Assembly: GCA_965216875.1 (NCBI GenBank)
Contig: OZ244207.1
Span: forward strand, 5,216,001-5,280,000
Direction: 5' to 3'
Length of the DNA: 64,000 nt
Source of the DNA: Rubripirellula sp.
GTDB lineage: Bacteria; Planctomycetota; Planctomycetia; Pirellulales; Pirellulaceae
Shown: positions 59,007 to 63,340 of the stretch, one piece after another
Numbering within the stretch: the stretch's first letter is position 1
How the letters are laid out: each line of letters starts with the position of its first letter
The notes under the pieces: model-generated
The model's input: the letters and a program-made list of their open reading frames with translations, nothing else
The model's database searches: none
What the model was told of the DNA's origin: nothing
Program-made: the position numbers and the translations under genes

Positions 59007-61064
59007 GTGAAGTTTTTGTTTGAATCGGTTTCCGAAGGCAGCTGTCTGCTGAATCTTGACGCGAGGGAAATGGATGAAATCATCCAAGCCTCGGTCGATT
59101 TTCTCGTGCAAACGGGTCGCCTGCCGGAAGAACAGCGTGATCATGTCCTCGAAGGGATTTTGGAACGAGAACGAACCGTGCCCACCGTCATCGGGCATGC
59201 CTTCGCCGTCCCTCACTTCTACGACGATACCATCGAAAAACCGGCGTTGGTTTTTGTTCGGTTGCGGCACGCGGTCAATCTGGGCGCTCCCGACGGCATC
59301 GCCACCCGATACGTCTTCTTGATGATCGGCTCTCGGGCACAGACACAACAGCATCTCGATCTGTTGTCGTCGATCGCCCGATTGATGTCCGACAACGTCT
59401 TTCATTTCGAAGCGACCTACGCCAAGACTCAACAAGACGTCCTCGATGCGATCGAGCGGCACGTCAACCGCAACGTGTTGGCGGCTCCGCCCAAACCGCG
59501 GACGGTCAGCGAAGGCTTGCAGGCTGAAGCCAAGCCGCTTTCCGGGATTGTCGGCGACTTGAGGAGGCGATTGCCTCACCTTGTCGATGACTTCCGCAGC
59601 GGACTGCAGGGAAAATGCGTCGCCTCGATCATCTTCCTTTTCTTTGCCTGCCTCGCCCCAGCGATCACCTTTGGCGGGATCATGGGGATCGCGACCGGGG
59701 GCCAAATCGGCGCCTCGGAGATGCTGCTCGCTTCTGCTGCGTGCGGGATCCTGTATGCGATTTTCGCTGGTCAGCCGCTCATCATCCTGGGCGGGATCGG
59801 GCCGTTGCTGATCTTCACCATCATCCTGTACAGGTTATGCGGTGACTTCGGGCTCGAGAACCAGTTCCTGGGGGTCTACGGCTGGGTCGGGATCTGGACG
59901 TCCGTCTTGACCGTTGTGCTTGGCATCACCAACGCCAGCAATCTGATGCGGTTCTTTACTCGGTTTACCGATGAAATCTTTTCGGTACTGATGTCGCTGA
60001 TCTTTATCTATGAAGCCTTCAAAGCGATCGTCATCAGCTTTCAAGAAACCAAAGAGCTCGACTATGAAAGTGCGTTCCTCGCACTGATCCTGGCCCTTGG
60101 CACGTTCTACATCGCGATGACGCTGGCGGGGATTCGCCGCAGTAATTACCTGTTCCCGTGGATGCGTGAGTTCCTGGCCGACTTTGGACCGTCGATCGCC
60201 CTGGTCTGCATGGCTCTTGTCGCGTTCTTCTTCAGCGACGGTGTCGACCTGAAAACACTCGAAGTGGGTGCAGGAGGCATCGGCACCACAAGCGGCCGGC
60301 CTTGGCTGGTCGATCTGGGGAGCGTGCCGGTTTGGGTGCGGTTCGCAGCCATCGGGCCCGCGGCTCTGGCGACCGTGCTGGTCTTCCTTTCACAGAACAT
60401 CTCCGCCCGATTGGTCAACAGTCCACAGAACAAGTTGGTCAAAGGCGAATCCTATCACTGGGACCTGACCCTGGTCGGACTCTTGATTGGTGGTTGCTCG
60501 TTCTTTGGGTTTCCTTGGCTGGTTGCGGCGACCGTCCGCTCACTCGCCCATGTTCGGGCACTCGCCGACGTAGAAGAAATCATCGACGGTGGCGGCAACA
60601 AACGTGAACAGATCATTCACGTGACCGAGAACCGCGTCACAGGTCTCGCGATTCATCTCTTGATTGCGGCAGCCCTGTTCGTGTTACCGCTATTGAAATA
60701 CGTCCCGATGGCGGCCCTGTACGGCATCTTCCTGTACATGGGCTTTGTATCGCTGCGTGGCGTTCAGTTCGTCGAACGGTTGGGACTTTGGATCACCGAC
60801 TCGTCGATGTACCCGCTGAATCACTACACACGGCGCGTTCCGATCAAGACGATCCACCTGTTTACGTTCATACAGTTCGTCTGCCTTGCGATCCTTTGCG
60901 TGATCAATGTCAGCCCGTTTAAGCCAGTCCAGATTCTCTTCCCGGTCTTCATCGCATTGCTTGTCCCGGTGCGATGGTGGATCACTCGCTTCTTCGAGTC
61001 CGACCATCTGGCATTCCTCGACGCCGACGAAGAACCCGAAGCCGAAGAATCGCACTGGTTCTAA
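59007..61064 (+). CDS. PTS EIIA domain fused to an SLC4 (HCO3- cotransporter/band 3) membrane domain
   Basis: EIIA: ILERE, TVIGHAFAVPH, HLDLLSSIARL. SLC4: FFACLAPAITFGG, FAGQPL, FTRFTDEIF, KLVKG.SYHWDL, PWLVAATVRS, ENRVTG, YGIFLYMG, IHLFT.IQ. Confidence 0.9.
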   Translation: MKFLFESVSEGSCLLNLDAREMDEIIQASVDFLVQTGRLPEEQRDHVLEGILERERTVPTVIGHAFAVPHFYDDTIEKPALVFVRLRHAVNLGAPDGIATRYVFLMIGSRAQTQQHLDLLSSIARLMSDNVFHFEATYAKTQQDVLDAIERHVNRNVLAAPPKPRTVSEGLQAEAKPLSGIVGDLRRRLPHLVDDFRSGLQGKCVASIIFLFFACLAPAITFGGIMGIATGGQIGASEMLLASAACGILYAIFAGQPLIILGGIGPLLIFTIILYRLCGDFGLENQFLGVYGWVGIWTSVLTVVLGITNASNLMRFFTRFTDEIFSVLMSLIFIYEAFKAIVISFQETKELDYESAFLALILALGTFYIAMTLAGIRRSNYLFPWMREFLADFGPSIALVCMALVAFFFSDGVDLKTLEVGAGGIGTTSGRPWLVDLGSVPVWVRFAAIGPAALATVLVFLSQNISARLVNSPQNKLVKGESYHWDLTLVGLLIGGCSFFGFPWLVAATVRSLAHVRALADVEEIIDGGGNKREQIIHVTENRVTGLAIHLLIAAALFVLPLLKYVPMAALYGIFLYMGFVSLRGVQFVERLGLWITDSSMYPLNHYTRRVPIKTIHLFTFIQFVCLAILCVINVSPFKPVQILFPVFIALLVPVRWWITRFFESDHLAFLDADEEPEAEESHWF

Positions 61065-61068
61065 GAAA

Positions 61069-61299
61069 GTAGGGTGTGTGCTTGCACGCACCACCCACTC
61101 AAGAAACGAGGATGGCCACAAAAAGCACAAAAGAACACGAAAAGAAGGTTGCAGGTCTTTTCGTGACTTCTTGTGTTTTTCGTGGCTCACATCGGCAGTC
61201 GTTTCCCGGCACGCCGCAACTGCGAAACGCGCGAACGCTACTTTCGGCGGAGCGATCGGCGAGAATGGTCCATCGGGTGCGTGCTTGCACGCTCCCGAC
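61069..61299. repeat. Mosaic palindromic repeat cluster between convergent genes
   Basis: gtagggtgtgtgcttgcacgcacc ... gggtgcgtgcttgcacgctcccgac flank gccacaaaaagcacaaaagaacacgaaaa...ttttcgtgacttcttgtgtttttcgtggc. Confidence 0.78.
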
Positions 61300-61324: not shown

Positions 61325-62131
61325 CTATTTCTTGCGACGGCGGTACCAGACAACGGCGCCGCCGAGCAAAGCGAGAACACCTAGGCTACCTGGCTCAGGC
61401 ACGCGGGCGGCCTCGAATTGAATGTCGTCGATCGCCACGTAGGTTGGCGTGTTGATGCCGAACGACCCAACGTCGGTGCTGGTGAATTCAATCCCAATGC
61501 GGGTTGCTTCGCCCAGCGATGTCAGGTCGACCCGTTGCCAATCCTCGACAATGAAATCGTTCGCAGGGTCGGCAAAACGATAGTCAGCCAAAATGTGCTC
61601 GACGAATCCGCCACCACCCGGTGTGAGGTCATTGAATCGCACCGTAAACAGGTCGGGCTCAGCTCCAGTGGGACCACCAAACGGATCCGCAAAGGCGTTG
61701 CCAAATTCCAAGATGAAGGCAGCGGTCGCTGTGTTGGTAACCCACAACGAGTCGAAGAACATCCCGCTCGGTGCTTCCATCACCGCCGTGTTGGGACTGA
61801 ACGAGTTTGCGACGGCCCAAGTGGACGAACCACCAACGCCGGCGCGCGGCTCCGAGGTCGTATCGTTGTCGTCGTTGAATTCCGCAAAGCCACCCGATGC
61901 ATGCGACGTGCGGTTGGAGTAGGCGAAGCCGTTCCAACTCTGAAAGGTGGGATCGTAATTGTTGTTGAAGCTGGCGCCATTCTCACTGAAACCGCCAGCG
62001 GCGTCGGCACCCACGTAGGCACTATCAGGTGAAAGGCCGGCGCCGAGCGTTTCGAAATCGACCACGGTGGTCGACCAACCGATCGGTTGGATCAAAAGAA
62101 CGCCTAGCACCATCAAAAAGATCCGAGGCAT
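61325..62131 (-). CDS. DUF4465-domain protein with PEP-CTERM sorting signal
   Basis: Signal peptide; SWNGFAYSN, LADYRF, DWQRVDLTSLG, STDVG.FGINTPTYVAID; VPEP + TM + RRRKK. Confidence 0.88.
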   Translation of the reverse strand: MPRIFLMVLGVLLIQPIGWSTTVVDFETLGAGLSPDSAYVGADAAGGFSENGASFNNNYDPTFQSWNGFAYSNRTSHASGGFAEFNDDNDTTSEPRAGVGGSSTWAVANSFSPNTAVMEAPSGMFFDSLWVTNTATAAFILEFGNAFADPFGGPTGAEPDLFTVRFNDLTPGGGGFVEHILADYRFADPANDFIVEDWQRVDLTSLGEATRIGIEFTSTDVGSFGINTPTYVAIDDIQFEAARVPEPGSLGVLALLGGAVVWYRRRKK

Positions 62132-62182
62132 GGTTTATGAACTCCCATTAAGGACTTGAAGCAAATCGTGTTGTGTTTGTGG

Positions 62183-62977
62183 TTAGAACGTGTCGGCCGG
62201 AATGACTTCGTGGCCAGCACGCGTAATTAATTGTCCGAGCACTTGAGTATCGATCGACTCGTTAAGCAAATGTGTCGACCCATCAAGCAACAGCACCATC
62301 GCGCCGGCCGGATGAAGTGATCGGATTTCGTTGTCGCCGATCCAGACGTTCTTGTCGTTGATCGGATGCGCCTGAACAAAAACGTTGCCGCCGTTGATCC
62401 ATTGGCTTTCCAAACTGAGCATGTCTTCGCCAGTCGCCATCGTGTTCGACAGGCCATCGATGCAATCGCGAAAGGCAATCTCTTTGTCGTAAAGGAAGAC
62501 GCCGTCATCGGGGCGACGGTCGACCAGGCGTTCGCCGAACAGGCCACCATAGGTGATTTCGCCACGCGGCCCGTCCTTTGGAATCGCGGTGGGACAAAGG
62601 TAGGCCTCGACGGGCGTCGCGGCCGCTTCGGCGTTGTCGGGATGGTCGTAGGCGAGATCAAAATCGACCGCTTCGTACAACGGTTGGTGCCCCATTTGAG
62701 GCAAGATCTGGGCCGACCAAGCGATCTGCTTGCGCGTGTCGGGTTGGCCCCAACCGCGTCGCTCGATGCACCCGATCGGCAGCGTGCGATGCAAGTTGTG
62801 ATACGCGTGAAGTGCCAAACCAATTTGATGCTGGTTGTTGCGACAGCTGGTTTGCCGAGCCGATTCGCGCGCAAACTGAACCGCCGGCAGGAGCAATCCG
62901 ACCAGGATGCCGATGATCGCGATCGAAACGAGTAGTTCGACCAACGTAAATGCGGTGCGGTGACCTCTTTGGCCCAT
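62183..62977 (-). CDS. DUF1559 prepilin-type N-terminal cleavage protein (H-X9-DG C-terminus)
   Basis: AFTLVELLVSIAIIGILVGLLLPAVQ.ARE.AR...C.NN..QIGLALH.YH; HPAGAMVLLLDGS. Confidence 0.93.
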   Translation of the reverse strand: MGQRGHRTAFTLVELLVSIAIIGILVGLLLPAVQFARESARQTSCRNNQHQIGLALHAYHNLHRTLPIGCIERRGWGQPDTRKQIAWSAQILPQMGHQPLYEAVDFDLAYDHPDNAEAAATPVEAYLCPTAIPKDGPRGEITYGGLFGERLVDRRPDDGVFLYDKEIAFRDCIDGLSNTMATGEDMLSLESQWINGGNVFVQAHPINDKNVWIGDNEIRSLHPAGAMVLLLDGSTHLLNESIDTQVLGQLITRAGHEVIPADTF

Positions 62978-63093
62978 GAATCAACCCGGCAGTGAAAATT
63001 GCGCAGGATCAATCGGTAACAAACTAGAATCGTAAGTTCGCACGGAATGCACGATTCGTGACGCCGACCTCGCCCAAGAAGGTCACTTGCGTC

Positions 63094-63340
63094 CGATGAG
63101 AGGTAGGTCTTCTGACTCTCGATGCACTAAGTGATTCGCCTTCTCGCCCAGGATTCCTGACCCGGAGCAATGGCCAAAAGAGTGAATCATTAGTTGGAAG
63201 CCCCGGTCGGGTTGCCAACGGCTGGCAGCCTAGCAATTGGGGATTTCCGCATCGAATACAGCGGCCGGGCCGTCCCGGAATTTCACCGGAGTTCCCTGTT
63301 CACGCGAAGAAAAGTCCTTCATTCGCGTCACCACTCATCG
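63094..63340 (-). promoter_or_regulatory. Cobalamin (B12) riboswitch
   Basis: Minus strand reads ggtg...AACAGGGAActccGGTGAAATTCCgggacggCCcggccgCTGTa...GCCATTG...GAGAAGGC...GAGTCAGAAGACCTACC (B12 box), closed by cgatgag/ctcatcg. Confidence 0.93.

Follow-up and report, generated by a model that had tools for sequence, protein, structure and literature searches.

The window (the whole stretch of DNA that was analyzed, 64,000 nt) contained a single Rfam match, a cobalamin riboswitch followed on the same strand by genes encoding a DUF1559 prepilin-like protein and a DUF4465 protein (Table 1). The riboswitch match spanned the whole RF00174 model, for which the gathering score is 31.5 bits, and the aptamer carried a 79-nt insertion relative to the peripheral stem of RF00174. 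The ATG at 62977 lay 107 nt from the end of the aptamer model and about 116 nt from its closing stem. The two ORFs were separated by 51 nt, and a further 260 nt lay between the end of the unit and an SLC4-family gene of convergent orientation; neither btuB nor btuFCD was inside the unit. An earlier sequence-only reading had described a full cobalamin riboswitch ending ~115 nt upstream of a DUF1559 gene, a DUF4465 gene with a VPEP-TM-RRRKK tail 51 nt further on, and a unit abutting a convergent SLC4 gene without btuB or btuFCD. Each part of this description agreed with the covariance-model search, the profile matches and the distances measured here.

Table 1. Features of the riboswitch-led unit and its flank in the window
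Feature	Position	Strand	Match or detail
SLC4-family gene, convergent	59007-61064	+	PF00955, 547 bits
DUF4465 (BtuJ-family) protein, 268 aa, hydrophobic N-terminus, PEP-CTERM tail	61325..62131	-	PF14717
PEP-CTERM sorting signal: VPEP, transmembrane stretch, RRRKK	61328..61402	-	TIGR02595, 21.4 > 16
DUF1559 (SBP_bac_10) prepilin-like protein, 264 aa, type A subfamily	62183..62977	-	PF07596, E 1.4e-47
H-X9-DG motif, residues 219-236	62270..62323	-	TIGR04294, 20.6 > 19
Prepilin cleavage/methylation motif, residues 7-30	62888..62959	-	Ala -1, Phe +1, Glu +5
Leader, aptamer to start codon	62978..63084	-	
Cobalamin riboswitch aptamer RF00174	63085..63350	-	Rfam, 69.9 bits, E 3.5e-15, model 1-189

Neither a terminator-like site nor a clear Shine-Dalgarno sequence nor a sigma-70-like promoter was found at the leader, which folded no better than shuffled sequences (z -0.33). 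A sequencing run guessed to be RNA yielded three contigs of low depth that covered only the leader and the pilin gene, and it was not taken as evidence. On the other side of the unit, the SLC4/Band 3-like bacterial transporter has a PTS EIIA-like domain fused N-terminally. The gap between it and the DUF4465 gene contains an element of ~30 nt (61064-61095) present in about 155 copies in the genome, and rarer repeats extend beyond it to 61290.

The DUF1559 ORF carried all three marks of its family, namely PF07596, the H-X9-DG motif and the N_methyl domain (E 1.5e-6; TIGR02532, 21.8 against a cut-off of 16.3). An AlphaFold model based on 68 sequences (pLDDT 92.7, pTM 0.87) placed a globular head on a helix of 52 residues. 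Foldseek gave no match to this model at E <= 0.001, and the top 18 rows of a VIA fold search were all pilins or pseudopilins, the best being PilA4 (Z 5.3, rmsd 3.4) with only 116 residues aligned. The predicted frame resembles that of type IV pilins, into which a large stretch is inserted. The protein has the prepilin motif and, in the model, the long N-terminal helix and the C-terminal sheet of type IV pilins and pseudopilins such as ComP and Akkermansia MUL2A, but differs from them in its length of about 256 residues, in a large insertion that has no known fold match and in the absence of assembly genes nearby. ComP, which acts in uptake, is named as a DNA-binding pilin in PDB titles among the fold matches. 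No vitamin ligand for any pilin was described in the literature searched.

The DUF1559 family is heavily expanded and of unknown function according to the accessible text of PMC8567305 and PMC10632474, and PF07596 is treated likewise in that of PMC2754498. The window pilin is a clear member of this family, but in contrast to its paralogs has its own conserved residues and a ligand-specific regulator. The residues specific to type A (S88, N115, G144, E149, I194, N198, F200 and Q202) gather at 86-88, 115, 144-149 and 194-202. Its named relatives are from a Rubripirellula MAG (78%) and Stieleria (76%), pointing to Pirellulaceae as the probable family of the host.

The DUF4465 ORF matched PF14717 well above the cut-off (E 2e-34, 119.9 bits against 25), while its PEP-CTERM tail, recognized by TIGR02595, scored just below the Pfam PF07589 cut-off (19.4 against 20.7). 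Eight DUF4465 proteins have been shown to bind B12, among them one from the planctomycete Mucisphaera and D5EK51 (9HMU), and two conserved tyrosines, BtuJ1 Y146 and Y245, contact the ligand (PMC13398666). The text of that paper mentions neither pilins nor sorting signals, nor planctomycetes by name; the occurrence of DUF4465 in Planctomycetota is mentioned in the accessible part of 10.1101/2025.07.01.662609. The window protein belongs to the same Pfam family as BtuJ1 and BtuJ2 of Bacteroides thetaiotaomicron and the solved binders (PDB 9FCT, 9I2L, 9HMU; PMC13398666) and is likewise under a cobalamin riboswitch. With the family profile it matched all six solved DUF4465 members, and its best PDB match was D5EK51 (9HMU). 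The HI-loop tyrosine is kept (Y231, equivalent to BtuJ1 Y245, in a conserved NTPxY loop), whereas Thr136 occupies the position of the DE-helix tyrosine Y146, which is Tyr in 66 and aromatic in 70 of 72 relatives. Judging from the alignment, Phe139 may compensate for the lost aromatic residue. As one of the two contact tyrosines is kept and the other replaced, binding of B12 by the window copy is likely, not assured. The window protein also differs from BtuJ1/BtuJ2 in ending in a PEP-CTERM tail where these have a lipoprotein anchor, and in its neighbor, which is a prepilin and not BtuB, BtuG or BtuH. The proposal that DUF4465 binds B12, made in the sequence-only reading with reference to Bacteroides BtuJ, therefore stands for the family, and its extension beyond Bacteroides was already published. 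Since a planctomycete protein is among the published binders, the DUF4465 half of the module is already known and the new part is the pilin. The Bacteroides B12 relay is described without pilins in the accessible text of PMC13616437, and no paper linking DUF1559 pilins to B12 was found among the main texts searched, few of them subscription papers.

The host genome (8.26 Mb, 99% complete) encodes MetH, and searches for MetE, CbiC/CobH and CobS in it found none, so import of finished B12 is likely needed by the host. It has four cobalamin riboswitches including the one in the window; of the other three, one leads to a DUF6580 gene, one to a pair of ribonucleotide-reductase genes (identified by eye) and one to a second PEP-CTERM protein. 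None of the four precedes a TonB-dependent receptor. No BtuB scored over the cut-off in the host genome, the best TIGR01779 match being 79.5 bits to the plug of one receptor only, as expected from the early proposal of a BtuB-independent system. The two TonB receptors of the genome were not riboswitch-linked within the loci scanned, and either of them could import B12. Elsewhere in the genome lay two exosortase matches (PF09721), prepilin-peptidase (Peptidase_A24) matches and 11 secretin matches over the cut-off. There is one orphan PF01497 periplasmic binding protein.

The second riboswitch-led PEP-CTERM protein (L003:452-1375; C1:6167000-6167926) is a candidate new B12 binder. It had no Pfam or PDB match, and all that was retrieved was a LIC_13355 hit, which was weak, and Atlas clusters without a name. 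It was 35-46% identical to the third gene product of other units, and in 23 of 80 type A loci its domain formed one protein with two or three DUF4465 domains, so the host module is split over two riboswitches. The riboswitch at L001 (C1:3270931-3272728) is followed by the DUF6580 membrane protein, a candidate for the inner-membrane step, and a diphthamide-synthase-like ATPase. In L152 and L173, genes of DUF6580-like type were identified by eye behind the pilin.

DUF4465 was present in 12 of the 401 genomes sampled from the phylum. At the other 12 DUF4465 loci, from 11 genomes, an Rfam cobalamin riboswitch was always detected, and a prepilin was located in or beside the unit at 11 of them, in varying order. 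The twelfth locus, a second paralog, had only a divergent long-branch DUF1559. The pairing of DUF4465 with a prepilin, which the sequence-only reading predicted to be conserved, was thus found in all 11 other genomes of the sample. In L022 and L033 the riboswitch led, in this order, a DUF4465 gene, a partner and the prepilin, behind which came genes for a periplasmic binding protein, an ABC ATPase and a FecCD permease; neither unit contained a TonB receptor. The last gene of the L027 unit was cobO/btuR. Secretin, ATPase and platform genes were absent from all of the units read.

A profile of seven partner prepilins, built with the window protein left out, retrieved the window pilin from its own genome as the first of 56 hits (266 against 222 bits). 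Riboswitches were scanned with an nhmmer profile that recovered 30/30 held-out riboswitches and exactly the 4 known in the host genome, with Rfam checks. When the C-terminal part of the pilin was used as the sole query, 354 relatives were obtained, and the best 80 of these 354 loci were retained. A riboswitch was located upstream on the same strand at 67 of these 80 loci, and one more had a cut fragment. The remaining loci comprised seven that were cut or short of upstream DNA and five that were truly riboswitch-free with at least 1 kb upstream. A DUF4465 gene was found at 72 of the 80, and five of five Rfam spot checks of the riboswitch calls were confirmed. The base rates in the host genome were 1 of 56 DUF1559 paralogs and 1 of 11 PEP-CTERM genes, and a generic adjacency of PEP-CTERM and DUF1559 genes was rejected on the latter count. 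By its sequence, the window pilin is a member of one orthologous, single-copy subfamily.

Some loci displayed other arrangements. In L060 (1413-3089) the DUF4465-PEP-CTERM protein and the prepilin share one open frame in which the basic cluster also serves as the prepilin leader; this fusion was seen in one MAG only and may be an assembly error. The pilin and DUF4465 genes faced apart in L025, L026 and L055, with back-to-back riboswitch pairs in L025 and L055 and metE-like genes flanking L026.

Cobalamin riboswitches were detected in 139 of the 151 class genomes. Behind the top-scoring riboswitch locus in 30 of these genomes, a prepilin was identified by motif search and reading by eye in 25, as the first gene in 24 and as the second in one. 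In the phylum-wide sample, a prepilin followed only 1 of 30 riboswitches and about 11 led to genes read by eye as TonB receptor-like. In a quick tree of 74 rows, with 15 rows dropped as long branches or near-duplicates, the riboswitch-linked prepilins separated into type A, which includes the window pilin, and type B, each forming one side of a branch with a support of 100. The two types are distant homologs (HHalign 96.6%, 17% identity), and a single origin was compatible with the data (p-AU 0.57). Type B was encoded in 75/151 class genomes, mostly without a DUF4465 partner in view and often as the first gene, and a riboswitch lay upstream of it at 14 of the 16 held-out loci and at 20 of the 24 from the family. 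The riboswitch had been expected to give a ligand clue for one DUF1559 paralog; the clue concerns two widespread prepilin lineages instead of one paralog. In the Planctomycetia loci L132, L157 and L165 a small ORF that is lipoprotein-like and has a CxxC motif comes after the type B pilin, and in L159 a different PEP-CTERM protein lies behind the riboswitch, with no pilin within the 1.5 kb read.

BtuB-like receptors, defined by a TIGR01779 match at E <= 1e-40 (none scored over the curated cut-off), were found in 16 of the 151 genomes of the class and in 43 of the 121 of the family. An Rfam cobalamin riboswitch was located directly upstream of 16 of the 19 BtuB-like genes scanned, and DUF4465 was beside none of 20. 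The riboswitches ahead of BtuB-like genes (L175-L192) were shorter and scored weakly with the pilin-linked riboswitch profile. Type A was encoded in 50 of the 121 family genomes and occurred together with a BtuB-like receptor in four, against 17.8 expected. Type B was then searched for as a prediction and turned up in 17 of the 32 genomes that had neither and in 1 of the 43 with a BtuB-like receptor, a 16-Mb bin with 8% contamination. In the final tally 63 genomes had a pilin only, 38 a receptor only, 5 both and 15 neither, with cut-offs set by us, 24 candidates scored per genome and incomplete MAGs included. The receptor was riboswitch-free in two of the genomes with both that were examined, and in G394 receptor and pilin each had a riboswitch. 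The pilin is therefore nearly mutually exclusive with riboswitch-linked BtuB-like receptors.

This distribution was compared with a RecA tree of 119 genomes (two lacked RecA), a single marker gene with a weak backbone, on which each trait changed state about 20 times and whole large clades had one state in common. A Pagel-type test gave LR 19.5 for type A against BtuB-like receptors (p 6e-4, simulations 0.5%) and LR 43 for any pilin (p about 1e-8), which supports dependence between the two traits. The independent-pairs test on well-supported branches, which was underpowered, was not significant for any pilin (2.4 pairs the same way, 0.1 opposite, median p 0.5), nor was it for type A alone (2.0 versus 1.1, p 1). 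Since relatives mostly have the pilin or the importer and not both, the pilin likely does the job of the importer, along a route that has no description so far in the literature searched. The pilin module shares its regulator and apparent need with riboswitch-controlled BtuB and BtuFCD, and in L022 and L033 the pilin occupies the operon place of BtuB ahead of the ABC genes, but unlike BtuB it has no beta-barrel or plug.

The unit is real, and these genes probably form a B12-uptake regulon with an undescribed core part, the pilin. We lean slightly towards a two-gene, riboswitch-led B12-capture module in which the pilin takes over the outer-membrane step of BtuB. Under B12 shortage, the switch would be left open and the module turned on. 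The DUF4465 protein is the predicted binder of B12 at the cell surface. The DUF1559 protein would be processed by a prepilin peptidase and then become a dedicated minor subunit of a type IV pilus or a type II pseudopilus. Its large inserted head would bind the corrinoid, and the pilin would carry it through a secretin into the periplasm, with the exosortase-sorted DUF4465 protein and the second riboswitch-led PEP-CTERM protein concentrating B12 for it. Import would be completed by the riboswitch-linked DUF6580 membrane protein in the host, or by a BtuFCD-type ABC system in other classes. Within this scheme we infer the repression, the processing, the surface display, the binding of B12 by the pilin and the transport through a secretin. 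Surface capture by both proteins had been put forward from the sequence alone; the comparative part of that proposal was borne out by the conserved pairing, the genome without a BtuB over the cut-off or a riboswitch-linked TonB receptor, the presence of exosortase, prepilin-peptidase and secretin genes, and the near-exclusion, and capture itself stands as a proposal. Counted against a pilin in the place of BtuB were Thr136, the two TonB receptors, the lack of assembly genes in the units, the independent-pairs result, the genomes with both or neither, the five riboswitch-free loci and the weak fold match.

Some of these observations would fit a DUF1559 protein that acts as a B12-binding trap or chaperone in the periplasm and is kept in the inner membrane by its pilin helix, the outer membrane being crossed via an unregulated TonB receptor or a wide channel. 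The host has two such receptors and just one orphan PF01497 protein, the units read lack pilus-assembly genes, and PF07596 is termed a solute-binding protein family in the accessible text of PMC2754498 (compare the name SBP_bac_10). However, in L022 and L033 a gene for a periplasmic binding protein accompanies the pilin gene, so the pilin is no substitute for BtuF there, and a trap gives no reason to expect exclusion of BtuB-like receptors. We regard this as unlikely, if worth serious thought. The pilin may also never contact B12 and instead alter the pilus for attachment to B12 producers or particles, or serve in display or export of the PEP-CTERM binders, with DUF4465 as a surface reservoir. 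This would agree with the predicted pilin fold, with an Akkermansiaceae MUL2 pilin read as an attachment device (PMC13174399, accessible part) and with BtuJ1 described as a reservoir (10.1101/2025.07.01.662609, accessible part), but it leaves unexplained both how an apparent auxotroph without a riboswitch-linked BtuB imports B12 and why the pilin and BtuB nearly exclude each other. Many type B pilins also come first behind a riboswitch, with no DUF4465 detected by the genome search, a gene found in far fewer genomes (12/401, against 75/151 for type B), and we hold this explanation to be quite improbable.

The exclusion might be a by-product of ancestry, the unit serving another ligand (an incomplete corrinoid or cobalt) or a B12 bypass, and the DUF4465 copy may have drifted. 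The replacement of a conserved Tyr by Thr136, the independent-pairs test and the uniform state of large clades would all be in line with this. About 20 state changes per trait and a significant dependent model speak against it, as do the retained HI-loop Tyr and the possible replacement of the lost aromatic by F139, and incomplete corrinoids would be of little use to the host because CobS was not found. This seems to us very improbable. On balance we retain the capture module with the pilin at the outer-membrane step. A wider idea, that in planctomycetes a pilin/secretin route for B12 has repeatedly displaced BtuB and that the DUF1559 paralogs, tens in each genome, form an interchangeable library of ligand-specific adaptors, a TonB-free counterpart of SusC/D, is speculative and we would sooner doubt than believe it. 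Among 15 TPP riboswitches in 101 genomes, all 14 that were readable led to a ThiC-like gene (by eye) and none to a prepilin, so the B12 case is the sole footing of this wider idea.

DUF1559 is among the largest planctomycete families of unknown function. One ligand, one regulator and a selectable phenotype, growth of a MetH-only cell on limiting B12, make the function of this subfamily directly testable. If the pilin replaces BtuB, a vitamin would pass the outer membrane independently of TonB, and surveys of B12 uptake that count btuB would misjudge a common bacterial group.
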